Positions 3,271 through 19,606 of a stretch of 20,864 bases of DNA are shown piece after piece (the stretch's first letter is position 1; each line of letters begins with the position of its first letter). The stretch is from Verrucomicrobiota bacterium (lineage in GTDB: Bacteria > Verrucomicrobiota > Verrucomicrobiia > Chthoniobacterales > UBA6821). The stretch lies in assembly GCA_008932965.1 (NCBI GenBank), contig WBXG01000031.1, forward strand, positions 1 through 20,864. Direction: 5' to 3'. The notes under the pieces were generated by a model. The model was not told the DNA's origin and made no database searches. It worked only from the letters and a program-made list of their open reading frames with translations. The position numbers and the translations under genes were made by a program.

Positions 3271-3573
3271 CTACTCAAGAACTTTGGGCACAATAAAGAG
3301 TCCACTCGCTTGATGTGGAGCATTTGCAAGTGCCTCTTTTTTGGGGAGGCTAGGCTGAGGTTGATCGTCGCGCACAACGTCAAAAACAGAAATAGCGTGG
3401 GCCATCGGTTCAATACCAGTAAGATCAATTTTATTGATCAAGGCAACATGTTCAAGAACACGGTCCAGCTGTTTTGAAAAGAGTTCACTCTCCTCTAGGG
3501 TTAAAGTAATTCTGGCGAGACGAGCCAAGTACGGAACATCAAGGAGATGTGAATGAGAAGAAGAGGCCGCCAT
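3271..3573 (-). CDS. gatC: Glu/Asp-tRNA amidotransferase subunit C
   Basis: The C-terminal 100 aa of the 230-aa track ORF (MAASSSHSHLLDVPYLARLARITLTLEESELF...IEPMAHA...) has GatC length and pattern, with the ATG at 3573..3571. The upstream 130 codons run through repeat DNA and are rejected. Confidence 0.9.
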   Translation of the reverse strand: MAASSSHSHLLDVPYLARLARITLTLEESELFSKQLDRVLEHVALINKIDLTGIEPMAHAISVFDVVRDDQPQPSLPKKEALANAPHQASGLFIVPKVLE

Positions 3574-3675
3574 ATTTTCAAAAACTATAAAAACTGATGA
3601 ACGCACCCATGATTGAATCAATAAGGAGCTATTTTTTGTGTCTTTAGATTTAGGTGATTTTTTTAAAAGAGTTAG

Positions 3676-3851
3676 CCCGGATGTTGCATCCCAATCTACT
3701 ACGGAAGCCGGTAAGTCAGATGGATGCTGCACTAGACTTACATTTTGACTTAGGTGGTATGGACTCATACAGCCCGGTGTCAAAATACTCGTCTGCCTTG
3801 CCTTATCAGCCTTTGCGGCCTCCTCGTCACGATCAGTATGAAGTATTCGGG
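3676..3851. repeat. 176-bp MITE/REPIN-like palindromic element, A-type copy 1
   Basis: Flanked by TTAG (3672-3675) and CTAG (3852-3855). The right terminus is gatcagtatgaagtattcggg. The left terminus, cccggatgttgcatccc, is a degenerate form of cccgcatatttcatacc. Homologous along its whole length to 5872-6048. Confidence 0.85.
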
Positions 3852-3855
3852 CTAG

Positions 3856-4031
3856 CCCGCATATTTCATACCGATTCTGCTGCGGCTTGCGAACACCTGA
3901 TGGATACTGCGTTAGCTTCGAATTGCTCCTCGGGCAGTATGAAACATACAGCCGTCGTCGCAATCCATCACCTTCCTTGTCTGCATCAGGATTCGCGGCG
4001 CCTCACGACGAACCAGTATGAAATATGCGGG
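3856..4031. repeat. 176-bp MITE/REPIN-like palindromic element, B-type copy 1 (best-preserved termini)
   Basis: The terminal inverted repeats are cccgcatatttcataccg... and ...ccagtatgaaatatgcggg. CTAG flanks both sides (3852-3855 and 4032-4035). A central mini-hairpin, cagtatgaaacatacag, sits at the exact midpoint (3936-3952). Confidence 0.88.
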
Positions 4032-4320
4032 CTAGAAAGATTTACAAAAAAAAAGATCCTTAACAAGGTTATTTACCAAATGATGTTTCTCGATTGATTC
4101 TTGCTGCTGGAGATGAAGTGCTCTAACCAATGGAGGCTCGCTCCTAGAAAAATAGAAAATTTATAGATCTTCAAGCAGAAAAAAATATAAAATAGTGAAT
4201 AAAAAAGTTTGCTCCTGCCTATGTCTGGGGGGGTGTTTTTTGGGAGCTTAGTCTCCATTACTACAGGATAGTGCTCTTCTTTTCGGCAATTTTTTATAGC
4301 ACGTTCCATGGAAGATTTAA

Positions 4321-4438
4321 CCCGCATATTTCATACTGATTCTGCTGCGGCTTGCGAACACCTGATGGATACTGCGTCAGTCTCGAATCGCTCCTCGGGC
4401 AGTAGGGACTCCTGCAGCCGTCGTTAGAGTTCATTCCT
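4321..4438. repeat. truncated B-type copy (left half conserved, right part diverged and broken off)
   Basis: 4321-4404 differs from 3856-3939 at 5 positions by eye. Similarity then decays (gccgtcgt...cattccttc) and ends at the stop codon of the 4439..5824 CDS. It is preceded by TTAA (4317-4320). Confidence 0.85.
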
Positions 4439-5824
4439 TCACGTTTTTAAATTCAAAATGTCAACCGTTTGAGCTGGAACTTCCAAGAGCTCAGGCTCTT
4501 TCCCAATACGTGCAAAAATTCTTTCCCCAATTTTTTGTCCAAAAGATATTTCGAGCACGGTGTGATCTCCTGCTTGTTCATCGGGAGTATTTTCTGAGAG
4601 GTGAGCAATGAATCGAATTCTTGAGGTTGGTTGAGAAGAATCATCAAGTCCTGCTAATGCTGCTTGAGAAGGGGTAGCTACCTGATAGGAAAGGATCTTT
4701 GTTTTTTCAAGCATCTCCAACATTTTTTCAACAGTTGCCTTTGGTAGGATTGTTTGATTGTCTAGAATCCAATCTTCGCTTCCCCCTAATTGACGATGTA
4801 ATGAAAGGGTTTTTCCCAATGTAGTAATCTCAATACAATCAACCGTATCGAGATTGAGTTCAAAGAGCTGACGATCTCGTAATGCCTCGGGAGTGATCAT
4901 GAAAAGCTGCGATGAAGAAGGAGGTGCTATAAAAATAGCATGACGATCTGAAGAGCAAAGATAACAAGGTGGGGCATTAGTGTTTGCATTTAGATCCTCT
5001 GCCACATTACCTAGGGAGAGTGTTACCGGTTGGGAAATATCCTCCGCAAGTAAGCTTATTGTGGCACGAGGCTGATCTAGTCCATAGGTCGAGAGATTAT
5101 TGGGATCATCATTTCCAACCCGCTTTAAAACTTGTGTAGTAAAAAGAGGAGCAATCCATGATTGTAATGCTTCTGAGGAGATGATTCCAGAAATGGGCTG
5201 GGTCATAACCCATTTCTCATTTTCTTTTTTTAATGAAAGTTGACTCCTGCCACGTGTTACAGTGATCTCTTTTAAAGCATCCAATTTTAACGTGGTAAGG
5301 TAAGGATCACGAAAACTATCGGCATTTAAAAAGGCAATAGTGGCAATTTCAGAAGGGATGATCATGACTGTCTTCTGCTTTTCAAACTGAGCAAAAAGAG
5401 ACTTATCACTAGCGGCTTCATTTCCAATAAAAAGAGTTTGATCTTTGGCTCCTTCTTGATGAATCGTAAGAGAGCGTTTTGGGTTTTGAAGACCCAAGCT
5501 AGAGAGGCTTAATGTATGCTTGAGTTCTTTTGGGTTGAGAATATTGAGTGGTTTGAGTTCTGCAGCGATGGTCAGCAAGTGAACTATTTTTTTATCACTC
5601 ACACGATCAGGTGGCGTTGTAGAAATAGACCAAGCATCCTCCTCTCGCTGTAATGTATGTGTGTCATTGCCATCGGTAATGACAATGCGAGTAACCTTTT
5701 CCGGATCGAGATGAAAGATAGGACCGTCGGAAGCTGATTGTTGGTGAGGAAGGTCTGCAAACAAAAACCAGCTGATAGTTGCAAAAGCTAAAACAAAGAG
5801 AGCGATTGTTCCTCGTCGAGTCAT
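4439..5824 (-). CDS. DUF4340-like single-pass membrane protein (accessory to the GldG-type ABC module)
   Basis: 461 aa with an N-terminal TM helix (IALFVLAFATISWFLF). It has repeated segments of the type V.RI.I.....H.L.RE.D.W.I and ITVTRG..QLSLKKENEKWVMTQP, typical of DUF4340. It sits directly downstream of a GldG-like gene, the usual synteny. Confidence 0.7.
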   Translation of the reverse strand: MTRRGTIALFVLAFATISWFLFADLPHQQSASDGPIFHLDPEKVTRIVITDGNDTHTLQREEDAWSISTTPPDRVSDKKIVHLLTIAAELKPLNILNPKELKHTLSLSSLGLQNPKRSLTIHQEGAKDQTLFIGNEAASDKSLFAQFEKQKTVMIIPSEIATIAFLNADSFRDPYLTTLKLDALKEITVTRGRSQLSLKKENEKWVMTQPISGIISSEALQSWIAPLFTTQVLKRVGNDDPNNLSTYGLDQPRATISLLAEDISQPVTLSLGNVAEDLNANTNAPPCYLCSSDRHAIFIAPPSSSQLFMITPEALRDRQLFELNLDTVDCIEITTLGKTLSLHRQLGGSEDWILDNQTILPKATVEKMLEMLEKTKILSYQVATPSQAALAGLDDSSQPTSRIRFIAHLSENTPDEQAGDHTVLEISFGQKIGERIFARIGKEPELLEVPAQTVDILNLKT

Positions 5825-5871: not shown

Positions 5872-6048
5872 CCCAAATATTTCATACCAATCTACTACGG
5901 AAGCCGAGAAGCAAAGGTGGATGCTGCGTTAGACTTCCATTTTGACTTGGACAGTATGTATTCATACAGCCCTGCATCAAAATACTCCTCTACCTTGCCT
6001 CATCAGCCTTTGCAGTTACCTAGTCACGATCAGTATGAAATATCCGAG
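5872..6048. repeat. 177-bp MITE/REPIN-like element, A-type copy 2, inside the ABC operon
   Basis: Aligns end to end with 3676-3851, roughly four fifths identical by eye with one 1-nt indel. The termini are cccaaatatttcatacc and gatcagtatgaaatatccgag. The flanks are TCAA (5868-5871) and TTAT (6049-6052), and the TTA of the latter is the stop codon of the GldG-like CDS. Confidence 0.85.
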
Positions 6049-7545
6049 TTATGCATCAATGCGATTGCGCTTTCTCCTCCAGAGGAAAAAAACGCCTGAA
6101 AAACAGGCTCCCATTGGAATGATAAAAATGCACCAAAGAGCAATACTACGCAACTCTTGTTGGCTTAAATTTAAGGTAAAGTAGGATTTCATTTTGGCTG
6201 TATTCCCCGCCAAGGAAATACGATCAATCAATCCATTGAGGGAGCTCGAAAAAAAATCAAGTTCCACTTCTCCAATGCAAGAGTCTTTAATAAAATCACT
6301 ATTTCCTACAACAACCATACGGGAAGCACGGACGGCCACACGATCATCATGAAGAGCTCCACGGTCTGCCATTGCTGCTATAACGACTGGGTAGTGTGTG
6401 TCCTTAGTGGGTTGAAAAGAAATCTCCCCTGGTGATTGATCTGCAGCATCACAAGAACCCCAAAATCCATAGAGTGCCTCTATGAGGGGACGCACACGTC
6501 TTTCTTGAGAGTCCTGATCCTCTATTTCTAAAGCAAGTGATTGAGTTGGTCCCTGGAATAAGATGTTGAGATTTAAAAATTGTTTTGTAAATTCTGAGCC
6601 AGGAACAAAAAGACCCGTGACATCATGAATAATAATATCTCTGTTTCCTCCAGGAATAGAGCGAATGACACGATCATGCTGTGGGGTGATTCCAGTATCT
6701 TGAATGAGTCCTTTTATTAAAGGGGTTTCGACTGTGGGATCTAGTAAAATAAAGAGCCTTCCTGATTGTTTCCAATAAGCTCGCAAGGACTCTGCCTCTT
6801 TTTCTGAGAGATCCACATGAGCTCCCGCAATAACAATGAGCGCAGCATCCTCTGGCACATCATTGCTACTGCTAAGGTTCAGTAGTGATACGGTGATATG
6901 TTGCCAGTTGAGATAGCGTCCGATGATTTTCAAAGGGGAGGGACCAGGCACCATCTCTCCATGTCCTTGCAGAAAATAAATTTTTTTTAATGGCAATCCG
7001 CTTAATTCAATAAGTGCAGCATTAATGACTTGTTCTCCGCGAAAAGCTATCAGCCGTGTCTTTTTTTCTTCAATAGAGCTTCCTGTCTCGTACTCTCCTA
7101 GTTCTTTTACTGGAATGATTTTTTGGTGATCCAAATAATCAAGGATAACAACATTTTCATTGGGATTAAATTTATACTTCGCTTGCAGTTCACGAGCCCT
7201 TGTAAGATTTCTTGCAGGGTCCAAATATTCTACAATTAAGTTTTCACGTGCCTTAATTTGATATTCTTGAATCAGCGCTTCTAAGTCGCCATAAAGCTCT
7301 GTCTCTTGGGTTAAGGAAGTCGGCGAAAAATAGATAAAAATGTGTGCTGGTTTGTGAATGCCAGAGAAAAGAACCGACCCTTGTTCCGAGAGTGAAAAGC
7401 GATGTGATCTAGAAAGGTCCCAGTGACGATAGTGATAAAAAGAGATCACATTGATCGTAATAAAAAGTAAAATAACAGAAACTCCTTGGATGAAAAGGCG
7501 AGCAAAAAGCCAGTAGCGAGAGGGAGGAGAGATTAACGGCGCCAT
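6049..7545 (-). CDS. GldG-like ABC-transporter auxiliary protein (ABC_transp_aux family)
   Basis: It has N- and C-terminal TM helices flanking a large periplasmic part. LIVIAGAHVDLSEKEAESLRAYWKQSGRLFILLDP resembles the family core. The start is set at ATG 7545..7543 (MAPLISPP...), giving a 13-nt overlap with the permease stop. The track ORF start at 7602 would overlap by 70 nt. Confidence 0.8.
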   Translation of the reverse strand: MAPLISPPSRYWLFARLFIQGVSVILLFITINVISFYHYRHWDLSRSHRFSLSEQGSVLFSGIHKPAHIFIYFSPTSLTQETELYGDLEALIQEYQIKARENLIVEYLDPARNLTRARELQAKYKFNPNENVVILDYLDHQKIIPVKELGEYETGSSIEEKKTRLIAFRGEQVINAALIELSGLPLKKIYFLQGHGEMVPGPSPLKIIGRYLNWQHITVSLLNLSSSNDVPEDAALIVIAGAHVDLSEKEAESLRAYWKQSGRLFILLDPTVETPLIKGLIQDTGITPQHDRVIRSIPGGNRDIIIHDVTGLFVPGSEFTKQFLNLNILFQGPTQSLALEIEDQDSQERRVRPLIEALYGFWGSCDAADQSPGEISFQPTKDTHYPVVIAAMADRGALHDDRVAVRASRMVVVGNSDFIKDSCIGEVELDFFSSSLNGLIDRISLAGNTAKMKSYFTLNLSQQELRSIALWCIFIIPMGACFSGVFFLWRRKRNRIDA

Positions 7546-9075: not shown

Positions 9076-9223
9076 TGTGTTGCAGGATAAAGGATAATGG
9101 TTAAGAGAGGAAAGGCTATTTAGATAATGTTTAAAAACCCATTAGCCCGGATATTCTAACTAAAATTCAATTGCTCTCTTGCTGAATAAACCCCTTTCAG
9201 GCAGAATACACCTTCTTAATGAT
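9076..9223. promoter_or_regulatory. divergent intergenic region expected to hold the promoters of the ABC operon (-) and sucA (+)
   Basis: The call is positional only: 148 bp of AT-rich sequence between divergently oriented start codons. I could not pin down a convincing -35/-10 pair by eye. Confidence 0.35.
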
Positions 9224-11968
9224 ATGAGTACTGCTTTTTTGGCGAAGTGGAATGAGGAAGCTATTGAAAAAAAATATGATCAATGGCGTCGTGATCCAAC
9301 ATCTTTAGAGGAGGATTGGAATTCTTTTTTTGAAGGATTCGAACTCGGTTTTGCTCGTGATCAGAAACGTGCATCATACCAAGAGTCTTCCTCCATTCCC
9401 ATCAAAGGTGACATTCGTGTTGAAAATCTTGTGAATGCCTATCGTACTTTGGGGCATACGATGGCACAACTCAATCCACTCGATTCCCATGCACCAAGCC
9501 AACCCCAGCTAGAAATTTCGGAGTTTGGTTTTTCTAATGAAGATTTAGAGGCTTCTGTTTTTTCTCCTTCGTTTCGTAATGGAGAGAAAATGACCTTGCA
9601 GAAGCTTATTGAAGAGCTGCGGTCTGTTTACTGTGGTACGTCCACTGTTGAATTCATGCATATTCAAGATCCGTTAGTTCGCAACTGGGTTCGTGATACA
9701 TTAGAGCAGAGTGATCAGGAAACAGATCAGACTTCTTATTATCGGATATTAAGAACACTTCATAAGGCAGAATTATTCGAGAACTTCTTGCACACAACGT
9801 ATGTTGGAAGCAAGCGTTTTTCTATAGAAGGAGGGGAATCGATGATGGTTGTTCTCTCAGAAATCCTTCGACGTTCTCCCGAGCAAGGAATCAAAGAGAT
9901 AGTTCTAGGAATGGCCCACCGTGGTCGTTTGAATGTATTAGCTAACTTTTTAAAAAAACCCTTTGCAGTTATTTTTAATGAGTTTTCTGATGAGTATCGT
10001 CCTGAGATTGGAGATGCAAGTGGGGATGTCAAATACCACCTTGGCTATCACACAACACGAGACGACGATCCTCAACATCCTATAGAAATTTATTTAGCTG
10101 CAAATCCAAGCCATCTAGAAGCTGTCAATCCTGTGGTGATGGGAAAAGTCCGAGCCCGCCAACGTATTTTAAATGATACAGAATCACGGCGGAGTGTCGT
10201 GCCCATTCTCATTCATGGAGATGCAGCTTTTATTGGTCAAGGAATTGTTGCCGAATGTCTTAATCTCTCTCAACTTCCAGGATATCGTGTCGGTGGAACA
10301 CTGCATCTCATCGTCAATAACCAAATTGGATTTACAACACTTCCTGCTGATGCTCGTTCTACAACGCATTGCACTGATATTATGAAGTTTATTGAGGCTC
10401 CCATATTTCACGTTAATGGAGATGATCCTCTTGCTGTATGCCGCATGGCACGTTATGCACTCGCTTTTAGGCAACAATTTGGTCGTGATGTCGCTCTTGA
10501 TGTAGTCTGCTATCGTCGCTATGGACATAACGAAGGAGATGAACCCTCATTCACACAACCCAACCTTTATAAAATTATTAAAGATCATCCACGGGTGAGT
10601 GAGGTGTTTTTAAAACAAGCTTTTGCTGCAGGAACCATTACTGAGGAGGAAGCTCATGAGAGTCGAGAAAGGACTACTAAGCACCTTCAAGAGGCTCTTC
10701 AAAAAATGAAAAAGGGGTTGGCTATCTCGGGTTATGATAAAAATGCTGCTTTTGTGGGCTCCACAGCTGTATTTCAGCCCGCCTATAATTTTGACCCAGT
10801 AGAAACAGCAATTTCTAAAAAAGCATTAATCAAATTAGTTGATGGATTAACAACCATTCCCGAGGCCTTTCGTATCCTTCCTAAAATTAAGAAAAATGTG
10901 ATAGAGCATCGTCAAAAGATTTTAGAAAAAGGAGGCCCTTATGATTGGGCATTTGGGGAGACATTAGCTTTTGCTTCATTATTAGTAGAGGGAACTCCAG
11001 TTCGTCTTTCAGGACAAGATAGTCGTCGAGGAACCTTTAGTCAGCGACATTCTGTTTTTTATGATGAAGTGACTCGAGAGCGCTTTATTCCTTTGTTACA
11101 TTTAGATCCCAATCAAGAGCGGTTTTGTGTTTATAATAGTCCTTTGTCCGAGGCTTCTGTGCTTGGATTTGATTATGGATATTCCATGGATTTTCCAAAA
11201 ATGCTCTGTATTTGGGAGGCTCAATTTGGTGATTTTGCGAATGGTGCTCAAGTAATCATCGACCAATTTATTGCCTCTTCCGAAACAAAATGGCTTCGAC
11301 CCTCTTCGCTCGTAATGCTCTTACCCCACGGTTACGAGGGCATGGGCCCAGAGCATTCTAGTGGGCGTCTAGAGCGTTTTCTTCAACTCTGTGCTGAGGA
11401 AAATATACAAGTCTGTAATCCCACTACCCCAGCACAATACTTTCATCTCCTGCGTCGTCAAATGAGAAGGGCTTTTAGAAAACCTCTTATTATCATGACT
11501 CCTAAAAAGCTATTACGCTTGGATGAAGCTGTCTCAAAAACAGAGGACTTTACTGAGGGGCATTTTCAAGAAATTCTCTTAGGACCGACATCTCAAGATC
11601 CTTTAAAAATAGCACGACTGATTTTTTGTACTGGTAAAGTCTATTATGATCTTCTGGCCTATCAGCAGACCCATGAGTTGAAAGCGGGCACATTGCTCAT
11701 TCGAGTGGAGCAACTCTATCCATTACATCAAGAGCTTCTAGAAAAGCTCATAAAACCGTTTTTATCCCAGAACACCGTTTTTGTCTGGTGTCAGGAAGAA
11801 CCAGAAAATATGGGTGCTTATCAATTTATAAAGCCTCGCTTAGAATCCCTTTTTAATAAGAAAATCATCTATGCGGGCCGTGAAGCAAGTGCTAGCACCG
11901 CTGTTGGGGCACTTTCTGTGCATCATAACGAGCAATCTGCCCTTGTAAAAGAGGCATTCGAGAAATAA
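9224..11968 (+). CDS. sucA: 2-oxoglutarate dehydrogenase E1 component
   Basis: About 914 aa. It has an N-terminal [16 protein letters not shown] block and a ThDP-type core ([37 protein letters not shown]). The ATG at 9224 (MSTAFLAKW...) is preferred over the TTG at 9179 used by the ORF track. Confidence 0.93.
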
Positions 11969-12005
11969 GAAATCCTATCCTTTCATTTTTACAACTCTCT
12001 TTTTT

Positions 12006-13109
12006 ATGAATATGCATGTTAAAATTCCTTCTGTAGGTGAATCTATTTCCTCTGGAGTTCTCTCTGCCTGGCATCTTGCTGAGGGGGCTCCTGTTTCTAT
12101 TGGTGATCTTTTGTTTACATTGGAAACGGATAAAGTTTCTACCGAAGTGACCGCTACAGAAGCAGGTATTCTCAAGAAATTAGTAGAAGAGGGGGCTGAA
12201 GTAAAAATTGGAGAGGTCGTCGCAGAAATCTTACCAGCTTCCATGGAAGATTCAAAAACACCTAAAAAAGAAGTTCCCACAAAAGATGTATCAGAAATCA
12301 AAAAAGAAAAAATATCAGCTCTAGCACCAACTCTAGCTCAGGCACCAGAACCTCAACATACTTCTCTCATCGAGAAAATATCTGAACCAGTTCCTTCTAA
12401 GAGCTCCACAGAGGGACGTGTCACTCGTCGTAAATTAAGCCCTCTGCGACGCAAGATTGCAGCTCAATTGGTCTCAGCACAACACACCGCAGCTATTTTA
12501 ACGACATTCAACGAGGTCGATATGTCTCGGATCATTCAGTTGCGTAAAGAGGTCCAGGAAACTTTTCAAGCAAAGTATGGTGTCAAACTTGGCTTTATGT
12601 CTTTTTTTATTAAAGCAGTAGTTGAGGCCCTCCAGGCTGTACCTAGCATCAATGCTCGGCTTGAAGAGGAGGAACTTATTGAAAATCATTACTACGATAT
12701 CGGTGTCGCTGTTGGCACTGAAAAAGGATTACTCGTTCCCGTATTGCGTCATTGTGAACAACAGTCACTTGCTGACCTAGAGGAGCAGCTTCTTGCTTAC
12801 GCAACGAAAGCTCGTGAAGGAAAAATCGCCCTTGCTGATTTACAAGGTGGTGTCTTCACCATTTCTAATGGTGGTGTCTATGGATCGCTCCTCAGCACTC
12901 CCATACTCAATCCTCCCCAAAGCGGCATTCTCGGTATGCATACGATTCAAGAGCGTCCTGTAGTAGTGAATGGGCACATTGTGATCCGTCCTATGATGTA
13001 CTTGGCATTAAGTTATGACCATCGTTTGGTTGATGGAAAAGAGGCTGTGACTTTTTTAATTAAAGTCAAAGAGGTGTTAGAAAACCCACTCAACCTCTTT
13101 CTCGAATAA
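12006..13109 (+). CDS. sucB: 2-oxoglutarate dehydrogenase E2, dihydrolipoyllysine succinyltransferase
   Basis: It has an N-terminal lipoyl domain ([10 protein letters not shown]), a Pro/Ala-rich linker and a catalytic domain ending in [10 protein letters not shown]. It starts 37 nt after sucA. Confidence 0.93.
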
Positions 13110-13115
13110 ATTTTC

Positions 13116-13772
13116 ATGGTTGTTGCTGTCACTTGTGGCCCAAGTTATGAACCGATCGATCAGGTTCGCTTTTTGAGTAATACCTCCACAGGGGAACTTG
13201 GAGCGCTACTTGCAACAACGCTTCAACAACATGGTTTCAAGGTAATCTGTTTGCGAAGTAGATTAGCTACTTATCCTATCGACTCTTCTATAGCTCAGGT
13301 CGTTCCTTTTTCAACCAATACTCAACTAGCTCACTCCCTTAAAGAAATCTCTAAGGAACATTCTCTCTTAGCGCTTTTTCATACAGCTGCTCTTTCTGAT
13401 TATCGGGTTGAAAAAATCACAAATCACCATGGAGAGGTGATTTCCTCTGGGAAAATTTCTACCGATTCAGGAGAGATCACAATGACATTGCAACCAACAC
13501 CAAAAGTGATTGCTATGCTTCGTGGCTGGTTTCCTCAAACCCTTCTCATTGGTTGGAAATATGAAGTCGATGGGACTAGGAAGGAAGCGATCTCCCAAGC
13601 AGAGCAACAGATTCAAAAATATCACCTGGATGCAAGTGTTGCCAATGGACCTGCTTTAGAAAATAGTTTTGAATTTATTTCAAGTAGCGGTATGAAGTCA
13701 GATCATCATTCTAAGAGCATGCTAGCTACTTTTCTGACAACATGGATTGAAGAGATGATCGCCAAAAAATAA
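13116..13772 (+). CDS. coaB: phosphopantothenate-cysteine ligase domain protein, standalone CoaB (no CoaC flavoprotein domain)
   Basis: 218 aa. VTCGPSYEPIDQVRFLSNTSTGELG, AALSDYR and LDASVANG align with the CoaB half of Dfp/CoaBC as I recall it. Confidence 0.7.
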   Translation: MVVAVTCGPSYEPIDQVRFLSNTSTGELGALLATTLQQHGFKVICLRSRLATYPIDSSIAQVVPFSTNTQLAHSLKEISKEHSLLALFHTAALSDYRVEKITNHHGEVISSGKISTDSGEITMTLQPTPKVIAMLRGWFPQTLLIGWKYEVDGTRKEAISQAEQQIQKYHLDASVANGPALENSFEFISSSGMKSDHHSKSMLATFLTTWIEEMIAKK

Positions 13773-13793
13773 TTTCTTGTTAAAATAGAGAGT

Positions 13794-14453
13794 ATGTTTA
13801 CAGGAATTATTCAAAGCATTGCTACCATTGCCGACATTCACGATCAAGAGGGGCTACGTACTTTTACCGTTGATTTTGAAAAGGGTTTTTGCAACGAGCT
13901 CACTGTAGGTTCTAGCGTCTCTTTAGATGGAGTCTGTTTAACGGTGACTGCATTATTCAATGATCATCGAGCTCATTTTGATGTGATGTTGCCAACGCTT
14001 AAAACTACCACCCTTCAGAATGCCTTCATGGGAATGAAAGTTAATGTCGAGCGGGCGACTAAGGAGGGAGCTGAAATTGGAGGTCATCCTCTCTCAGGCC
14101 ATATCGATTTCTATGGAAAGATTATTGCGATTCAAAATCCTGAAAATAACTATTCACTGACTATTGAAATTCCCTCAATGTGGATACGTTATATTTTTAA
14201 CAAGGGATATATAGCCCTCAACGGTACAAGCCTTACCATGAGTGAGGTAAATAAGCAGAAAGCGACCTTTGAAGTCTGGTTGATCCCTGAAACGCTGCGC
14301 AGAACAACATTTGATAAAAAAAAAGTTGATGACCTTATTAATATTGAACTCGATCGTAGCACACAGGTGATTGTTGATACTCTACGATCAGCCATAGAGG
14401 AGCAGTTTCAACTTTTGCGTGCAGGTGAGGGAGTAGCAAGAATCAACAAATAA
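13794..14453 (+). CDS. ribE: riboflavin synthase alpha chain
   Basis: 219 aa, starting MFTGIIQ. It has a duplicated lumazine-binding barrel pattern (SVSLDGVCLTV and YIALNGTSLTM). Confidence 0.9.
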   Translation: MFTGIIQSIATIADIHDQEGLRTFTVDFEKGFCNELTVGSSVSLDGVCLTVTALFNDHRAHFDVMLPTLKTTTLQNAFMGMKVNVERATKEGAEIGGHPLSGHIDFYGKIIAIQNPENNYSLTIEIPSMWIRYIFNKGYIALNGTSLTMSEVNKQKATFEVWLIPETLRRTTFDKKKVDDLINIELDRSTQVIVDTLRSAIEEQFQLLRAGEGVARINK

Positions 14454-14466
14454 TTACATTGTTGGT
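14442..14466. terminator. small hairpin spanning the abutting stop codons of convergent ribE and the OppF-like gene (possible weak bidirectional terminator)
   Basis: atcaacaa (14442-14449) pairs with ttgttggt (14459-14466) with one G-U wobble. The loop, ataattaca, contains both stop codons (TAA 14451-14453 and TTA 14454-14456). No U-tract follows. Confidence 0.25.
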
Positions 14467-15254
14467 ACGGCAGCTAAAAGCGTTTGTGTGTAGGGGTGCT
14501 CTGGATGCTCGAGGACCTGATGAGCGGGACCAGACTCTACAATTTTTCCAGAGTGTAATACGAGAACGGAGTCACTGATATGCTTGATAACAGCCAAGTC
14601 GTGACCAATAAAAAGCATTGCAAGCCCAAGCTCCTCTTGTAGATCTTTTAACAAATTAATGATCTGTGCTTGAACGCTAACATCAAGGGCGCTCACTGGT
14701 TCATCACAAATCAGAAGCTCCGGTTCCACTGCAAGAGATCTTGCAATGCTAATACGCTGCCGTTGACCTCCACTAAATTCATGAGGATAGAGTTTCATCA
14801 TCTCTGGTTTCAAACCTACTTTAACGAGCAAGCTGGCAACACGCTCCTGACGATCTAATCGAGACATTTTTGGAAAATGGATTTCAAGTGCTTCTGAAAT
14901 CATGCTGCCAATAGTAAGTTTAGGATGAAGCGAACTATGAGGATCCTGAAAAACCATTTGAATTTTCTTTCTCCAAGGATGAAATGCAGCCTCATTCATT
15001 GCTCCAATATTCTGACCCTGATAGAAAATTTTTCCGGAAGTGAGTTTGATCAACTTAACAACGGTTCGGCCAATAGTTGTTTTGCCACTCCCACTCTCTC
15101 CGAGCAGTCCTATTGTTTTGCCTCGAGGAATTGTAAAACTCACATCATCCACAGCTCGTATTTCGCCATCTTGACGATGCAATATTCCCTTAAAAACAGG
15201 AAAGTAAACCTTGAGGTTTTGTACCTCTAAAAGCAGTGAGGAGTCTGAAGACAT
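14454..15254 (-). CDS. oligopeptide/dipeptide-type ABC transporter ATP-binding protein (OppF/DppF family), orphan in this window
   Basis: 266 aa with Walker A GESGSGKTT, signature FSGGQRQRISIAR, Walker B LLICDEPVSALD and the C-terminal HPYTQ motif typical of the Opp/Dpp ATPase family. Confidence 0.88.
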   Translation of the reverse strand: MSSDSSLLLEVQNLKVYFPVFKGILHRQDGEIRAVDDVSFTIPRGKTIGLLGESGSGKTTIGRTVVKLIKLTSGKIFYQGQNIGAMNEAAFHPWRKKIQMVFQDPHSSLHPKLTIGSMISEALEIHFPKMSRLDRQERVASLLVKVGLKPEMMKLYPHEFSGGQRQRISIARSLAVEPELLICDEPVSALDVSVQAQIINLLKDLQEELGLAMLFIGHDLAVIKHISDSVLVLHSGKIVESGPAHQVLEHPEHPYTQTLLAAVPTM

Positions 15255-15263
15255 CGGGAGATA

Positions 15264-15740
15264 TTAATAAAGCTGATCATTCCCTTTCTCCTTTTCTGAA
15301 AGTATTTCAATAAACTCGCTAGGAGAGAGAGAGAGGATCAGTTTTTCTAATTTAGAAGAATCATTACAGACGCGAGAGATAGAGCCCATCACGCGAAGAT
15401 ACTCTTGATTGAGTGCATGGGGGATAGCGATTACAAAAAACAAATGAACCAATTCATCCACATGATTGAATGAGACTCCGCGATGGCTTCTTCCAACAGC
15501 CATCACAAAATCTCGAACACTATTGGTGCGGCCATGGTAAAGCATAGCAACTGTTTTTTTATTGCAAGAAAGAGGGAATGGAGGGGGAATAAGAATCGAA
15601 CTCAATAAGGAATTCCAGTCGGAGACACGTTCATCTTTTTTTAAATGTTCTAGAATTTCTTCTAAAACAGACTCTTCTTTTTCTGAGTTGAGTGAAAGAA
15701 ACAGAGACTTTGGAAGTAAAAATAATGACAGATCAGCCAT
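15264..15740 (-). CDS. PTS EIIA type-2 domain protein (PtsN / EIIA-Ntr-like)
   Basis: 158 aa. VAMLYHGRT occupies the position of the phospho-histidine loop (GIAIPHG in EIIA-Ntr). LFFVIAIPHALNQEYLRVMGSISRV resembles the second conserved block. Confidence 0.6.
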   Translation of the reverse strand: MADLSLFLLPKSLFLSLNSEKEESVLEEILEHLKKDERVSDWNSLLSSILIPPPFPLSCNKKTVAMLYHGRTNSVRDFVMAVGRSHRGVSFNHVDELVHLFFVIAIPHALNQEYLRVMGSISRVCNDSSKLEKLILSLSPSEFIEILSEKEKGNDQLY

Positions 15741-15786
15741 GAAGAATGTTATTATAGGGTGTTAAAGTTATAATGAGACGTTTTAA

Positions 15787-15828
15787 CCCGCATACTTCAT
15801 ACTGAAGTGTTATGAGGCGCCGTGAAGC
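15787..15828. repeat. solo terminus fragment of the repeat family (B-type right arm, inverted orientation)
   Basis: cccgcatacttcatactgaagtgttatgaggcgccgtgaagc resembles the reverse complement of 3987-4031 (cccgcatatttcatactggttcgtcgtgaggcgccgcgaatc). It is preceded by TTAA (15783-15786) and lies about 38 nt downstream of the nadK stop. Confidence 0.65.
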
Positions 15829-15865
15829 TTATTAGTACAAGGAAAACTTCTCAATGGAATAAACT

Positions 15866-16813
15866 CTACAAACGAGGTGTTTGGTTTTTTTTATTTTTGA
15901 GATTGCTTCCAGTCCACTGAAGTTTTTGGCACAAGACTTCGGCAAAAGTTGTTTCTGGAAGCATGACAAGGGGGAGTTTTTGTGGGGCCGTAGATAGGAG
16001 AAGGCTTTCATCTGGTTGCAGAAGCCTCGCATCACGGCCATCAAGGCTCATAAATACTTCTTGTGATCCAGTAGCTTGAATGGTGATTTTACTTTGATCA
16101 GAAATCACCATAGAGCGATTGCTAAAAGCGTGGGGACATATTGGGGAAATAAGTAACACATGACTTTCAGGAACTACTACAGGGCCTCCTGCAGCTAAGG
16201 AATAGGCAGTGGATCCAGTTGGTGTAGCAATAATGAGACCATCAGCGTGATATTCAGTAAAAAAAACATCATCAATAAAAACAGAAAGACTCACTAAGCG
16301 TGAGCGTTCACCTCGACTAATGACAACATCATTAAGAGCATTTCCAACAATTTTATTTTTTTTCCATTTATTGGAAATGGTGACCTCCAAAAGGCTTCGG
16401 TAACTTAAAACATAACTCTGTTCCGCCAAGCATTGAATAGCTTTTTTGTAGTCTTGAGCATTGAGGCAGGTGAGAAAACCCAGAGAACCGATGTTCAGTC
16501 CAAATATCGGTTTTACATAATTTACCGTTTGATGCAATGCACGCAGAATGCTTCCGTCGCCACCCATTACAAGAAGTATATCACACTGCTTGGCAAGAGT
16601 TCTTTCATCAAGGTTGGAGGGTTTTCCAATAAGGGCAGCAGTATCTTTCTCCATTAAAAAAGAGATTTTTTTTCGTTGGAGTTCTTTTACTACAAGCTCT
16701 ACAGCCTGAGCTGCACCCTCTTTTCCAGCATGAGCGATCAGACCAATAGTCATCGATGTGAGAGAAGGATGGGGAGGATTTTTATGGGGAAGGGGCTCTT
16801 TGATGGTTTTCAT
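15866..16813 (-). CDS. nadK: NAD(+) kinase
   Basis: Contains the GGDGSILRA motif and the downstream NDVVISRG and ADGLIIATPTGSTAYSLAAGGP blocks. The ATG at 16813 is 6 nt after the tlyA stop. An alternative ATG at 16753 (MTIGLIAHAGKEG) looks like a more typical NadK N-terminus. Confidence 0.9.
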   Translation of the reverse strand: MKTIKEPLPHKNPPHPSLTSMTIGLIAHAGKEGAAQAVELVVKELQRKKISFLMEKDTAALIGKPSNLDERTLAKQCDILLVMGGDGSILRALHQTVNYVKPIFGLNIGSLGFLTCLNAQDYKKAIQCLAEQSYVLSYRSLLEVTISNKWKKNKIVGNALNDVVISRGERSRLVSLSVFIDDVFFTEYHADGLIIATPTGSTAYSLAAGGPVVVPESHVLLISPICPHAFSNRSMVISDQSKITIQATGSQEVFMSLDGRDARLLQPDESLLLSTAPQKLPLVMLPETTFAEVLCQKLQWTGSNLKNKKNQTPRL

Positions 16814-16819
16814 GTTTTT

Positions 16820-17581
16820 TTACATGGAAGATATATTGGATGAGGGGCGCAAGAGGGCCAAAAATTCAATATTACCAGTCATTCCAGGGAGTGGAGATTC
16901 CATGACTTGTTCAAAATAATATCCTTCATTTTCTACCCAAAGGCGAATCGAGTCTACAGCTTTTTGTCGCAATAAAGGATCACGTACTATTCCACCACGA
17001 GCCACCTCTTTACGGGAGAGTTCAAATTGTGGCTTGATTAAAACAATGAGGCATCCTTCTGGTTTTACTAGAGAAAAGGCTGCTGGAAGGATACGGGTAA
17101 GGGAAATAAAACTTAAATCTCCCACAATCAGGTCAAAGAGTTCTGTGAAATCGCTAGGTTGAAGGTAGCGTGCATTGATTCCTTCACGAATTTCTACTAA
17201 CGGGTGCTGCCTCAAGGACCAGGCTAGCTGACCAGTGCCAACATCAATACCAGTTACTTTTTTAGCACCATGTTGTAGCAAACAATCTGTGAACCCACCT
17301 GTAGAGGAGCCTAAATCCAAGCAGTTGAGTCCCTCAGGATTAATAGAAAAACCCTTTAATGCTCCCTCTAGCTTATGACCACCACGACTCACATAGCGCT
17401 CTCGTTGGCTTAGGGTAAGGAGACTAGTTATAGGAATTTTTGTTCCAACTTTAGTAATAGGTTTTCCATCAACAAAGACTTGTCCTGCAAGAATAGAGCG
17501 TTGTGCTTTTTCACGAGATTCAAAAAATCCTTTCTCATGAAGGAGTTGGTCAAGCCTAATACGAATCACAGAAGCACTCAT
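16820..17581 (-). CDS. tlyA: TlyA-family rRNA (cytidine-2'-O)-methyltransferase
   Basis: It has an S4-like N-terminus (RLDQLLHEKGFFESREKAQRSILAGQVFVDGK) and an FtsJ-type SAM fold (YVSRGGHKLEGAL, CLDLGSSTGGFTDCLL). The ATG at 17581..17579 overlaps the HAD stop (TGATG). The track start at 17584 is a TTG one codon upstream. Confidence 0.88.
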   Translation of the reverse strand: MSASVIRIRLDQLLHEKGFFESREKAQRSILAGQVFVDGKPITKVGTKIPITSLLTLSQRERYVSRGGHKLEGALKGFSINPEGLNCLDLGSSTGGFTDCLLQHGAKKVTGIDVGTGQLAWSLRQHPLVEIREGINARYLQPSDFTELFDLIVGDLSFISLTRILPAAFSLVKPEGCLIVLIKPQFELSRKEVARGGIVRDPLLRQKAVDSIRLWVENEGYYFEQVMESPLPGMTGNIEFLALLRPSSNISSM

Positions 17582-18249
17582 CAATGATTGGGTTGCAAAG
17601 TCAGTAGTTGTTTAGGTTGATCAAAAATAAAATCGGGATCCATTGTAGCCAGGATAGAAGCTGAATTGTACCCCCAGGTAACAGCTGCTATACGAATGGG
17701 AACAGATTTAGTAGCCTCGATATCACGAGTTTCATCCCCAATGTAGATGATTTCATCTGCATTCCATTGATGCTCTTTCATCAGCTTTCGTATCTCTCGA
17801 CTTTTTCCAAGAAGCTTAGAGGAAGTCGAAATAAATTCAAAGCAGTCGATATGGTGCTGTTTTAAAAATGCAGTGACACTAAATTCTGAATTAGAAGTTA
17901 AAATGCCCAGTTGAAATCCCCGTGATTTTAGCTCGGCGAGTATTTCAGGCATCTCAGCAATAGGTTTCACCTCGGAAATACGTTCTTGAAACTTTGCTAA
18001 ACCACGACGGGCAATCATAGGAACACGCCACCGACTCACCCCCAAAAAACTGATGAGCTTTTGTACGGTCATATTTCGGGCCTCATGAATCTCCTCCTCG
18101 GGAAGAGATCGAAAGTGAAATTCTTGCGACAGTTCGTTTAAGATTCGTAATGCAATAGTACGTGTGTCGGCGACGGTTCCATCAAAATCAAATATCAGAA
18201 CTTTTGCCTTGCAGGAGCTAGCTTGTGGAATTTTAGAAGGTAAGAGCAT
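17581..18249 (-). CDS. HAD-superfamily hydrolase (phosphoglycolate phosphatase-like, subfamily IA)
   Basis: 222 aa with motif I FDFDGTVADT, motif II LTSNS and motif IV YIGDETRD. Confidence 0.8.
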   Translation of the reverse strand: MLLPSKIPQASSCKAKVLIFDFDGTVADTRTIALRILNELSQEFHFRSLPEEEIHEARNMTVQKLISFLGVSRWRVPMIARRGLAKFQERISEVKPIAEMPEILAELKSRGFQLGILTSNSEFSVTAFLKQHHIDCFEFISTSSKLLGKSREIRKLMKEHQWNADEIIYIGDETRDIEATKSVPIRIAAVTWGYNSASILATMDPDFIFDQPKQLLTLQPNH

Positions 18250-18381
18250 ACACTAGCGTCGCTGTAAGGTGGTGGTTTTTTTGGGATACTACTTAGAAAT
18301 TATATGAAAGGGCGTAGGAATTTTTAGAATGAGCAAGGCCGAAGACCGAATTCTATCCTAAGGTAACGTGAAGGGATAAGA

Positions 18382-18418
18382 AGGAAACTATTTCCTAAAA
18401 AACAGAAGGTTGTTTTTT
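18382..18418 (-). terminator. candidate weak terminator hairpins downstream of the aldo-keto reductase gene
   Basis: aaaaaaca/tgtttttt (18397-18404 / 18411-18418; 8-bp stem, 6-nt loop) and aggaaa/tttcct (18382-18387 / 18391-18396; 3-nt loop) lie 16-52 nt after the stop at 18434. The stems are AT-rich, so predicted stability is low. Confidence 0.25.
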
Positions 18419-18433
18419 GTAATTTCAAAGCAA

Positions 18434-19492
18434 TTAGATTCTCGCTTCTACTCTCGAGCGCAGTGAAACTGGTAGTTCCATCAAACCTTTGAATTTTCCC
18501 TCTTCTTGTTCGATTCCAAAATGATGGGAGACTAAATCATCAATACGGATCATTTCCTCCTCATGAAGTGGAGGTGTTGTTGAGGTTGTTGCAAACTCAC
18601 GAAGCTGTTGCTCATCATAAATATTAGGAAGAACCGTTGCTACGCGTGGATCACTCAAGAGCCATTGCATGGCTGCCTGACCCATAGTACGATCACCTGT
18701 TTCTAAAAAACGAAGTTGTTCTACTTTCTTGACCCCATTGAGAAGCCAGCTGCGAGGGCGATGATTGCGGTGGTCGTTGGGAGGAAAAATAGTCTCTGCT
18801 GTATACTTGCCTTCAAGCATCCCGGAGGAGTGGGGGACTCGAATGAAAAAACGAGTGTTAGATTCAGTTGCTTCTGCTACACGATGGAGTGTTTTTCCAG
18901 GATGTTGTTCTAGGAGATTATAAATATGCTGAACAACATCAGGATTCCGTTTTTCGATTGCAGCAGCTCCCTCTCCAAGCCAACCAATTGCTGGTCCTAG
19001 AGCAACTCCATGATGCATGATTTTTCCTTCTATTTTTAGGTTCTCTAATAGCTCCCATAGATCATCCTGCATTACCTGATCAAGACGAATATTGTGTAGT
19101 TGGAGCACATCAATACGATCGGTTTTAAGACGTTTGAGAGCTGCTTCTGTAGCTGCTCGGATTGCCAGTGGAGAGAAATCTTGTGGGATTTCTCGCTGTC
19201 CTCGCCGTGCATCGCCATGGTTGATAAAGTCATATCCCACCTTTGTTGCAATAACTATACGATCACGCTCTTGAGGAGTAGTGAATGCTTGAGCAATGAG
19301 CTCCTCACTTTTGCCATTTCCATAAGTGTCAGCTGCATCATACAGGGTGATGCCTAAATCAAAACCAAGACGCATTAATCTAACCGCTTCTTCATCAGTA
19401 TAATTTCCCCACCATCCTGTAGAAAGTGTCCAAAGGCCAAAACCAATTTCGCTGATTGGCAAAGTAGATCTAGACAATGCTCGATATTTCAT
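18434..19492 (-). CDS. aldo/keto reductase family oxidoreductase
   Basis: 352 aa with the LYDAADTYGNGKSEELI block (catalytic Asp/Tyr region) and overall AKR (beta/alpha)8 motif spacing. Confidence 0.88.
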   Translation of the reverse strand: MKYRALSRSTLPISEIGFGLWTLSTGWWGNYTDEEAVRLMRLGFDLGITLYDAADTYGNGKSEELIAQAFTTPQERDRIVIATKVGYDFINHGDARRGQREIPQDFSPLAIRAATEAALKRLKTDRIDVLQLHNIRLDQVMQDDLWELLENLKIEGKIMHHGVALGPAIGWLGEGAAAIEKRNPDVVQHIYNLLEQHPGKTLHRVAEATESNTRFFIRVPHSSGMLEGKYTAETIFPPNDHRNHRPRSWLLNGVKKVEQLRFLETGDRTMGQAAMQWLLSDPRVATVLPNIYDEQQLREFATTSTTPPLHEEEMIRIDDLVSHHFGIEQEEGKFKGLMELPVSLRSRVEARI

Positions 19493-19606
19493 AAGGAAGA
19501 GAGACTAACATTGGAGTTTTTATTGCACAAGAGTAGAGCAACTTTTCTATGGTGTGTGAATCGAATGGTGATGGATAGCAGCCCTTACATCACTCTTGAT
19601 GTTCTA

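Follow-up and report, generated by a model that had tools for sequence, protein, structure and literature searches.

A family of 176-bp MITEs, variable among strains of a freshwater Verrucomicrobium, and its probable IS1380-family partner

Repeat units of the window

The window (the whole stretch of 20,864 nt that was analysed) carries six members of one repeat family in 20.9 kb, i.e. three units of full length, a truncated one and two remnants of ends, all intergenic. They were found by nhmmer with a profile built from 41 units, and the search bore out the further members that an earlier note, made by reading the sequence, had reported. Two of the full units form an array whose order is TTAG (3672-3675), unit A (3676-3851), CTAG (3852-3855), unit B (3856-4031) and CTAG (4032-4035). 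The coordinates, the 176-bp length of A and B and the CTAG between them were exact on re-reading, and the other flanking 4-mers listed in the earlier note were correct.

Unit A (plus strand, E = 9e-42) is an A-type MITE, old and decayed: it has three to four mismatches in its terminal repeat and a hairpin z-score of about -1, is 68% identical to B and 81-82% identical to the third full unit, A2, and was found in every strain examined. Its target duplication is imperfect, since the 4-mer is TTAG on one side (a YTAR 4-mer from sequence and flank statistics) and CTAG on the other. Unit B (plus strand, E = 5.5e-50) is of the B-type and young: the 16-nt terminal repeat is intact, the unit is 95-98% identical to copies from MAGs of other species, and its presence varies among near-identical strains. 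Its ends form an inverted repeat of 26 nt that is 92% complementary. Strain comparison, detailed below, identifies the CTAG at 3852-3855 as one of the two 4-bp target copies produced by insertion of B, and, with the sequence, the CTAG at 4032-4035 as the other.

Further along, a TTAA (4317-4320), which alignment and the terminus map identify as an empty site in the window, flanks the truncated B-type unit (4321-4434, plus strand, model positions 1-113, E = 3.6e-24, 93% identity over 87 nt). This unit has lost its right arm and ends 5 nt ahead of the stop codon of a DUF4340 gene. Unit A2 (5872-6048, plus strand, A-type, 177 bp, E = 2.4e-40, about 82% identical to A) lies between an ABC-auxiliary gene and the DUF4340 gene in all strains; its flanks are TCAA and TTAT, and the upstream gene has its stop codon (TTA) at 6049-6051. 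The two remnants are on the minus strand. The first, an A-type left end of about 31 nt (1641-1671, E = 1.3e-4, with an exact 16-mer) followed by TTAA, is located between gatA and a glycosyltransferase gene; the second, a C-type right arm of about 60 nt (15787-15846, E = 8.8e-10) preceded by TTAA, is located between a PTS EIIA gene and an NAD kinase gene.

The GC content of the units is 0.50-0.53, versus 0.38 in the surrounding intergenic DNA. No Pfam family was detected in the open reading frames crossing the units, no Rfam family in the whole window, and no promoter or terminator consensus within the units when positions 3500-4500 were scanned. An exact look-up of the window's GatA protein gave no entry. 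The window was also free of transposase genes, as had been noted earlier: Pfam scans of its genes found none, Y1 included, and tblastn with an IS1380 transposase found no match in the window or in 10 strain contigs. As a side observation, the units break short-read assemblies, many contigs ending at a unit, and they create spurious 'hypothetical protein' calls as well as artificial N-terminal extensions of gatC.

Target sites and the probable IS1380-family partner

The terminal inverted repeat is 16 nt long, CCCGCATATTTCATAC, and is conserved across the 41 aligned units. With up to three mismatches allowed, it occurs 8 times in the window against 0.10 expected (none of 100 shuffles reached 8); in the chance control, exact matches of the 16-mer in unrelated taxa had no YTAR flank. 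At least three low-GC genomes of Chthoniobacterales carry multiple copies of the family. The MAGs CAIWMF01 and JAIPKF01 and the window together account for 44 or more full units and 171 or more termini, and the two MAGs have at least dozens of loci. Unit length ranges from 172 to 183 bp with a mode at 176, and there are shorter derivatives of 35, 48, 59, 60, 67, 111, 124 and 131 bp. None of these falls in an 88-bp class, and the earlier suggestion that the unit is a dimer of two halves of about 88 nt is left unsupported. The subtypes (A, B, C, D and P) are strongly modular and mosaic. A-type copies are 80-88% identical, decayed and fixed; B-type copies share 95-98% identity across species, against only about 79% for the orthologous genes of the same species. 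The differences between B copies are patchy, which suggests gene conversion.

Insertion duplicates a 4-bp YTAR target. The 4-mers on the two sides are identical in 27 of 43 full units versus 10.3 expected, a value reached in none of 20,000 shuffles, and they differ at one base in about a third of the units. In low-GC loci, 134 of the 171 termini have a YTAR flank, against a background of 1.3%, with the preference TTAA > CTAG > TTAG/CTAA. Another end is adjoined by 22% of the termini.

An element with the same ends and a transposase gene was found in L091 (2061-4065). It is a 2005-bp IS flanked by CTAA on both sides, its ends read CCCGCATATTTCATAC... and ...TATGAAATAAGCGGG, and its 484-aa ORF scores 345.9 bits on the NCBIfam model NF033539, 'IS1380 family transposase' (cutoff 180 bits), and E = 2e-131 against the Pfam family DDE_Tnp_1_4 (PF13701). 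An equivalent IS in L060 has a transposase scoring 323 bits on NF033539, also above the cutoff. Besides these two copies in genomes of other Verrucomicrobiota, 57 copies with the MITE terminal repeat and flanks were recovered from metagenomes, where both ends lie on the contig for 57 of 80 relatives of the transposase; all 57 have CCCG[C/G]ATATTTCATA[A/G/C] at both ends. The elements measure 1725-2207 bp and have a single ORF of about 480 aa, CCCG... ends and 4-bp YTAR flanks. In the metagenomic copies, YTAR-type 4-mers were seen at nearly all readable flanks, with CTAG on both sides in 27; many contigs have mixed flanks, possibly because short-read contigs join the flanks of different copies. 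A 459-bp internally deleted derivative in L017 (1479-1937), which keeps transposase residues 2-54 alone, links the size classes of the IS and of the MITE.

The sequence common to the IS and the MITEs is the 16-nt terminal repeat only, as seen when the subterminal regions of the IS were compared with the MITE arms. All recovered IS copies come from hosts of 55-66% GC, versus about 42% for the MITE hosts, and tblastn found no intact transposase gene in the sampled 8-kb slices of the MITE-rich CAIWMF01 and JAIPKF01. Pairs of ends enclosing 1.1-1.8 kb in JAAYVR01 were considered as a candidate IS and rejected: the DNA between them carries genes of the host (signal peptidase, flavin reductase) and no transposase.

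Since an IS1380-family IS has this terminal repeat at its ends and flanks of the same kind, the partner of the MITEs would be of the IS1380 type. To judge from these shared ends and target sites, the repeats are very probably a family of 176-bp non-coding MITEs mobilized in trans by an IS1380-family DDE transposase, such mobilization being the most likely route. The transposase would bind the terminal repeats common to both elements, cut a YTAR site with a 4-nt stagger and then integrate the unit; new copies would often land in the 4-mer already flanking a resident copy and so give tandem pairs such as A-CTAG-B. The earlier description is supported, in which the MITE family is uncatalogued and non-autonomous, has conserved termini and is flanked by YTAR.

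Folding, strain variation and alternative readings

As single-stranded DNA, unit B forms a single long, imperfect hairpin that has a central GTATG...CATAC mini-hairpin (MFE from -39 to -44 kcal/mol, z about -6.5). The whole-unit hairpin and its central mini-hairpin had been predicted by eye, and they hold for B; the fold of A2 is weaker (z from -2.6 to -4.4) and that of A is decayed. Cognate arms pair better than chimeric ones: -41.6 kcal/mol for B with B versus -33 to -34 for chimeras with the left arm of B, -32 for C with C versus -22 to -27, and -61 for P with P versus -33 to -36. Natural mosaics with weaker folds nevertheless persist, and RNAalifold, applied to 41 units, recovered terminal-repeat pairing alone, probably because the subtypes are out of structural register. 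Because the arms co-vary by subtype, the full-length hairpin appears to be a maintained property. It might help the ends of so small an element to synapse, or it might have a function in RNA.

The same co-variation speaks for a host structural or regulatory hairpin (a terminator, an mRNA stabilizer or a protein-binding site) whose copy number changes by recombination, an account that also gains from the intergenic position of all copies, from the hint of gene conversion and from the GC-richness of the units. We regard it as unlikely. New copies flanked by 4-bp duplications at unrelated loci are left unexplained by recombination, no Rfam family and no promoter- or terminator-like consensus was found in the units, and the RNAalifold result and the persistence of weakly folding mosaics weigh on the same side. 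A host role alongside mobility could still exist.

A MITE of another DDE family, either the IS5 group (with a 4-bp YTAR duplication) or IS630/Tc1-mariner (with TA duplicated within CTAG or NTAN), is very unlikely. YTAR is the classical target of IS5, which was for this reason a sensible first candidate, and CTAG is preferred by IS630, and pairs of flanks such as TTAG/CTAG and CTAG/CTAA would be compatible with a duplication of TA only. However, a 2-bp TA duplication is excluded because non-TA and non-palindromic 4-mers are duplicated directly: CTGA/CTGA, GTAA/GTAA, ATAA/ATAA, CTAA/CTAA and TTAG/TTAG are impossible from a TA duplication combined with a symmetric repeat. Identical non-palindromic pairs number 6 (CTAA twice, and GTAA, CTGA, ATAA and TTAG once each) versus 0.95 expected; there are no pairs of the inverted type, and the rare non-palindromic flanks match solely as direct repeats. 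Of the two duplications put forward earlier, YTAR or TA, it is thus the former that stands. As to IS5, the 4-bp YTAR duplication is present, but the ends of the element start with CCC and not with GG or GA. In the sampled DNA, every transposase-coding long element bounded by the terminal repeat has an IS1380-family gene, and none has an IS5- or IS630-family gene. In place of the families first named as mobilizers (IS5, IS630 and RAYT), IS1380 is the likely one.

The window was compared with five independent assemblies, to which it is 99.3-99.7% identical, and two sites show a length difference of exactly 180 bp (176 + 4). At the first, unit B is present in the window, L102 and L108 (flank-CTAG-B-CTAG-A) and missing in L103 and L110 (flank-CTAG-A), where a single CTAG is left; this is the empty site that had been proposed as a check. 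At the second (4317-4320), L102, L110, L105 and L109 have an extra full B-type unit and a second TTAA, the two alleles reading CGGG-TTAA-flank and CGGG-TTAA-unit-TTAA-flank. All four combinations of alleles at the two B-type sites are present in the population, and the intergenic length across strains is 685, 865 or 1045 bp. Both polymorphisms sit at a 4-mer flanking a resident copy. Either could be a loss and not a gain, whether through excision or through slippage between direct repeats made of the 4-mer and the terminal-repeat sequence; a SNP at position 5 of the terminal repeat of unit A is linked to the polymorphism and is compatible with gain and with loss. In L026, a syntenic contig 79% identical to the window, units occupy different intergenic places, in DNA too diverged for exact empty sites.

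Strains of an uncultured freshwater Verrucomicrobium that are nearly identical therefore still gain or lose copies of the MITE, and the earlier view that the family is active in this lineage is upheld by presence or absence, unit B included, among strains at least 99.3% identical. The B-type appears to be the currently or recently active subfamily and the A-type the older one. The possibility that all the repeats are relics of a past burst, now fixed and immobile, is consequently very slim as an account of the family. It draws on the decayed copies found in every strain examined (3676-3851 and 5872-6048, of the A-type, with the remnants 1641-1671 and 15787-15846); against it stand the two polymorphic B-type sites and the near-identity of B-type copies across species with far more diverged orthologues. 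It is refuted for the B-type and holds for the A-type.

Of the pair of element types first proposed, MITE or REPIN, only the MITE stands: the units do resemble REPINs (inverted REP pairs moved by a RAYT, or Y1/HUH, enzyme on single-stranded hairpins) in being long hairpins with conserved ends, many copies and intergenic positions, but the REPIN reading has a negligible probability, being excluded because target duplications are present (direct, non-palindromic ones included, with one 4-mer at empty sites), the ends are common to a DDE-type IS1380 element and not to a RAYT gene, and no Y1 transposase was found among the window genes.

Related systems and significance

The preferred reading, MITEs moved by an IS1380-type partner, can be set against known systems. 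REPINs and REP elements are likewise palindromic, intergenic and of high copy number; they lack a target duplication and are linked with the Y1 (RAYT) transposase, unlike the present units with their 4-bp duplications and DDE-type IS partners. Bacterial MITEs derived from IS elements include Correia/MITENme1 of Neisseria, ERIC/IRU and RUP. The units share with such MITEs a small, non-coding, multi-copy and intergenic nature, IS-matching terminal repeats, target duplications and a long stem-loop, and differ in their IS1380 partner family, 4-bp YTAR/TTAA duplication, modular subtypes and marked tandem arrays with one common 4-mer. A further example, MITEPye1 of Paracoccus yeei, is related to IS1182 (PMC11578231). 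No IS1380-derived MITE is described in the literature searched.

IS1380-family elements are 1.5-2 kb long and have a single ORF, a duplication of 4-5 bp and ends beginning with CCC; IS5 ends begin with GG or GA. Like IS1380, IS1247 and ISEcp1, the partner IS matches the IS1380 equivalog model, measures 1.7-2.0 kb and has repeats of about 16 nt starting with CC and a 4-bp duplication; the partner clade differs in its strict YTAR target and its repeat CCCG[C/G]ATATTTCATA. For comparison, IS1247 is 1672 bp long, with IR 16/13 and DR 5 (PMC3281130). The clade is abundant in Verrucomicrobiota, Planctomycetota and soil and peat metagenomes; the window holds non-autonomous derivatives of it only.

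The piggyBac superfamily is eukaryotic and a recognized relative of IS1380 (PMC5718144). Its end, TTAA directly followed by CCCTAGAAAGATA (PMC3078864), resembles the present arrangement, TTAA directly followed by CCCGCATATTTCATAC, in the 4-bp TTAA duplication and in the CCC immediately after TTAA. The MITE family differs by its prokaryotic host and by a target relaxed to YTAR, CTAG, TTAG and CTAA being also used; TTAA is its commonest target and not its sole one. A PDB sequence search with the IS1380-family transposase gave no match, and the transposase model that AlphaFold built on a shallow alignment had a pLDDT of 50.8, too low for a fold comparison with piggyBac.

It is rather improbable that the clade is the prokaryotic counterpart of piggyBac in both mechanism and ancestry, with seamless excision, a selected hairpin, tandem targeting and horizontal spread holding jointly. 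If it were, integration at TTAA/YTAR would go with seamless excision, the 'empty' alleles of the population being precise excisions; the full-length hairpin would be selected for helping the two ends of a 176-bp MITE to meet; new copies would be attracted by the 4-mer beside a resident end, hence the tandem arrays; and the 95-98% identity of the B-type across species about 79% identical would reflect recent horizontal spread.

To conclude, a MITE family and its likely autonomous partner are added to the Verrucomicrobiota, order Chthoniobacterales, where none is described in the literature searched. The architecture of TTAA followed by CCC connects IS1380-type elements with the eukaryotic piggyBac at the level of DNA, and the pair formed by the MITE and its putative IS1380-family partner would offer a simple system in bacteria for studying target choice and excision of the piggyBac kind. 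In freshwater metagenomes, the units mark strain-level variation and sites of rearrangement.

The 176-bp units and their relatives

Sequence reading gave the layout TTAG, unit A (3676-3851, 176 bp), CTAG, unit B (3856-4031, 176 bp), CTAG, with B bounded by a 26-nt inverted repeat, 92% complementary. The terminal 16-mer, CCCGCATATTTCATAC, had 8 matches in the window at up to three mismatches (0.10 expected; none of 100 shuffles reached 8). A search with a profile made from 41 units found six members, all intergenic: the full units A, B and A2 (5872-6048), a truncated unit (4321-4434) and two remnants (1641-1671 and 15787-15846). The gene order is GT2, gatA, gatC, DUF4340, ABC-transporter auxiliary, permease and ATPase, sucA, sucB and others; no window ORF is a transposase, and an Rfam scan of the window returned no family.

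A2 adjoins the TTA at 6049-6051, stop codon of the ABC-auxiliary gene, and the truncated unit ends 5 nt short of the DUF4340 stop codon (4439-4441). Upstream of sucA (9132-9150), TTAG followed by CCCGGATATTCTAAC is a possible 10-12 nt terminal-repeat relic, below the detection length of the profile search. Units also generate long spurious ORFs (window 3654-4097, plus strand, and 3271-3963, minus strand; strain contigs L102 7713-8006, L103 5982-6260, L108 10091-10513 and L110 2301-2651): 'hypothetical proteins' of 92-97 aa are called over the tandem pair, and gene callers lengthen GatC (100 aa) to 116-140 aa through units, the window's mechanical ORF reaching 230 aa.

An exact scan for the 16-mer, with one genome per species, gave at least 100 loci. 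Among the matches listed, most were in Verrucomicrobiota MAGs, the main carriers being the low-GC Chthoniobacterales/'Spartobacteria' MAGs CAIWMF01 (Kiruna_bin-02438) and JAIPKF01 (Tobar2m-G38), and many of the listed loci had plus/minus end pairs spaced 160 nt. The YTAR flank was present across Verrucomicrobiota and Planctomycetota; it was absent from the matches in unrelated taxa (Blautia, Christensenella, archaea, others), which are due to chance. At least 44 full units were extracted, 23 of them exactly 176 bp. Alignment of 41 units, including a 172-173 bp type from a Phycisphaerales MAG, revealed modular subtypes with left arms A, B and C, right arms A, B, C and D, and natural mosaics.

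The Phycisphaerales MAG (CAZIUL01, Planctomycetota) carries relatives (L015 6969-7140, L055 7016-7188, L067 6592-6763, L070 3925-4097) whose terminal repeat is the same, whose arms can be aligned with those of the family and which form a near-perfect hairpin (z about -10 to -11); horizontal transfer, common PVC-group ancestry or mis-binning could account for them. Another multi-copy element, in the MAG JAAYVR01 (Verrucomicrobia AS27yjCOA_75), has the same 16-nt repeat and YTAR flank, then CCTGAGCAGTCTGCGAAACGGGTGTCTTCAAGCAACCAAGGAAT (L003, L006, L010, L034, L046, L050, L058, L082, L090, L097 and L100); where two of its ends lie 1.1-1.8 kb apart, the DNA between them holds host genes (signal peptidase S26, flavin reductase) and no transposase.

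Folded as single-stranded DNA, units form a single long but imperfect hairpin, at whose centre sits a small GTATG...CATAC hairpin; the fold is strong in B (z about -6.5), weaker in A2 (-2.6 to -4.4) and decayed in A (about -1). RNAalifold recovered the terminal-repeat pairing only. Cognate arms fold at clearly lower energy than cross-subtype arms: -41.6 kcal/mol for B-B versus -33 to -34 for chimeras with the B left arm, -32.2 versus -22 to -27 for C-C, and -61.3 versus -33 to -36 for P-P. Complementarity is thus kept within subtypes, which might reflect either selection (e.g. because it aids synapsis when an element is this short, or serves an RNA role) or an origin of each subtype, time and again, as a palindrome. 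A consensus scan found no promoter or terminator inside the units. The lengths, layout, termini and hairpin described in the earlier note, and its statement that the window lacks a transposase, were accurate: coordinates, inverted repeat, 16-mer count and fold all agree. Its view of the unit as a dimer of ~88-nt halves was not supported, the known derivatives measuring 35-131 bp with none near 88 bp.

Target duplication and strain polymorphism

Flanking 4-mers were identical for 27 of 43 full units, against 10.3 expected in a permutation test (0 of 20,000 shuffles attained 27): TTAA/TTAA 16 times, CTAG/CTAG 5 times, and six non-palindromic direct matches (CTAA/CTAA twice, GTAA/GTAA, CTGA/CTGA, ATAA/ATAA, TTAG/TTAG) where 0.95 were expected (0 of 20,000 shuffles attained 6). 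Inverted-type pairs, which would be expected were the 4-mer part of the terminal repeat, were absent among full units. In the low-GC loci among the matches listed, YTAR precedes 134 of 171 termini (TTAA 67, CTAG 33, TTAG 20, CTAA 14; background share of the four together, 1.3%), with no consensus past the 4-mer. A 4-bp YTAR target is therefore duplicated directly, which excludes the two other mechanisms entertained in the earlier note: duplication-free RAYT/REPIN mobility, and the TA-only duplication of IS630, since non-TA and non-palindromic 4-mers are duplicated.

Ten strain contigs from independent assemblies, found via the 99%-identical cluster of the DUF4340 protein (many contigs), are 99.3-99.7% identical to the window. 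Their DUF4340-gatC spacer has three lengths, 685 bp (L103), 865 bp (window, L108, L110) and 1045 bp (L102), in steps of exactly 180 (176 + 4), and its alignment shows two polymorphic sites. Site 1, unit B itself (3856-4031), is filled in the window, L102 and L108 (flank-CTAG-B-CTAG-A) and empty in L103 and L110 (flank-CTAG-A); with just 68% identity between A and B, assembly collapse cannot account for this site. Site 2, the TTAA at 4317-4320, is empty in the window, L103 and L108 and filled in L102 and L110 (and, by end positions, L105 and L109) with an additional full B-type unit and a second TTAA, adjoining the truncated unit. All four allele combinations were seen, and the B allele shows linkage to a SNP in A's terminal repeat, at position 5. 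The change may have been insertion, excision, or slippage between direct 4-mer and terminal-repeat sequences. Both variable units lie in a 4-mer flanking a resident element; 37 of the 171 termini (22%; low-GC loci, among the matches listed) abut another end. In L026, a syntenic contig 79% identical to the window, units occupy other intergenic sites.

B-type copies are 95-98% identical across the window lineage, CAIWMF01 and JAIPKF01, although window and CAIWMF01 orthologous genes are ~79% identical; among A-type copies identity is 80-88%. Taken with the polymorphism in the population, these values indicate that B-type is a recently active subfamily, which probably spread horizontally, and A-type an old, fixed one.

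Several side observations concern the same contigs. Within unit B, 3925-3945 holds four clustered differences from the L102/L108 unit B (97.7% identity, versus 99.3-99.7% in flanks); the variant bases equal the ones in the truncated unit nearby, a pattern suggestive of gene conversion from copy to copy. L101 (JARVMP010080846.1, 99.6% identical), compared at 11386-19835 with window 3573-4439, has different genes after the truncated unit beside DUF4340 (hypothetical proteins, Glyco_transf_34, weak T3SS needle-like matches) in place of gatC/gatA, either by rearrangement at the repeat or as a chimeric assembly. Several other strain contigs terminate ~120-230 bp past DUF4340. Between a TMEM260-like gene and cinA, strains carry unrelated DNA (L102 13797-14580, 149-aa ORF, versus L103 12051-12531 and L110 8075-8555, 112-aa ORF). 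Both versions adjoin MITE-derived pieces: a degenerate full unit in L102, and in L103 and L110 a micro-element of 59 bp, made of two terminal repeats around ~25 nt, with TTTA/TTAA as its flanks. In L107 (571-1371), the gene for the oligopeptide-type ABC ATPase, which elsewhere encodes 266 aa, is annotated in two pieces, of 51 and 181 aa; the cause may be a frameshift or a sequencing error.

A probable IS1380-family partner

Every end pair 0.2-4 kb apart, among the matches listed, was searched for a partner. Two enclose an IS with one ORF: L091 2061-4065 (2005 bp, flanks CTAA/CTAA, 484 aa) and L060 123-2116 (1994 bp, 478 aa). Their products score 345.9 and 323 bits against NCBIfam NF033539, 'IS1380 family transposase' (cutoff 180), and match Pfam DDE_Tnp_1_4 (E 2e-131 and 2e-127). 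The L091 termini read CCCGCATATTTCATACC... on the left and ...TTATGAAATAAGCGGG on the right. In a Chthoniobacterales MAG, L017 1479-1937 is a 459-bp internally deleted IS derivative retaining transposase residues 2-54 only.

A metagenome scan with both transposases gave 80 loci at 75-84% amino-acid identity; 57 had both IS ends on the contig (1.7-2.2 kb), each carrying CCCG[C/G]ATATTTCATA[A/G/C] at both ends. Their flanks, YTAR-type 4-mers at nearly every readable end, were CTAG/CTAG in 27, TTAG/TTAG in 3, CTAA/CTAA in 2, TTAA/TTAA in 1, and mixed in the remainder, whose contigs barely exceed IS length, so that the left and right flanks could derive from separate copies. The transposase clade is very abundant (at least 8000 homologues in a protein search). 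IS and MITE share the 16-nt repeat only; the sampled low-GC DNA that carries MITEs yielded no transposase, and the IS copies are all from 55-66% GC hosts, the window being 42% GC.

Comparison with known systems

The window family shows all the defining features of a MITE, and the partner IS agrees with the IS1380 family model and general description; IS1247, for instance, measures 1672 bp with IR 16/13 and DR 5 (PMC3281130). Among prokaryotes, the recognised relatives of piggyBac are IS1380-like elements (PMC5718144). piggyBac itself inserts at TTAA only, both ends reading TTAA then CCCTAGAAAGATA (PMC3078864). The commonest configuration here, TTAA then CCCGCATATTTCATAC, is similar, but the target is relaxed to YTAR. 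On these end sequences the resemblance is a lead and not a claim of membership: a PDB sequence search with the transposase gave no match, and its structure model (pLDDT 50.8) was too poor for comparison with piggyBac. The literature searched held no IS1380-derived MITE and no description of a MITE in Verrucomicrobia; new MITEs of other IS families are reported routinely, e.g. MITEPye1 with IS1182.

To conclude, the repeats are a real, well-defined and recently active MITE family. The activity proposed in the earlier note was borne out by target duplications, multiple copies and strain polymorphism; its REPIN and IS630 options were not. A transposase of the IS1380 family most likely mobilises these elements, and what is chiefly gained is an IS1380/piggyBac-like architecture of target and ends, together with a clean population-level polymorphism.
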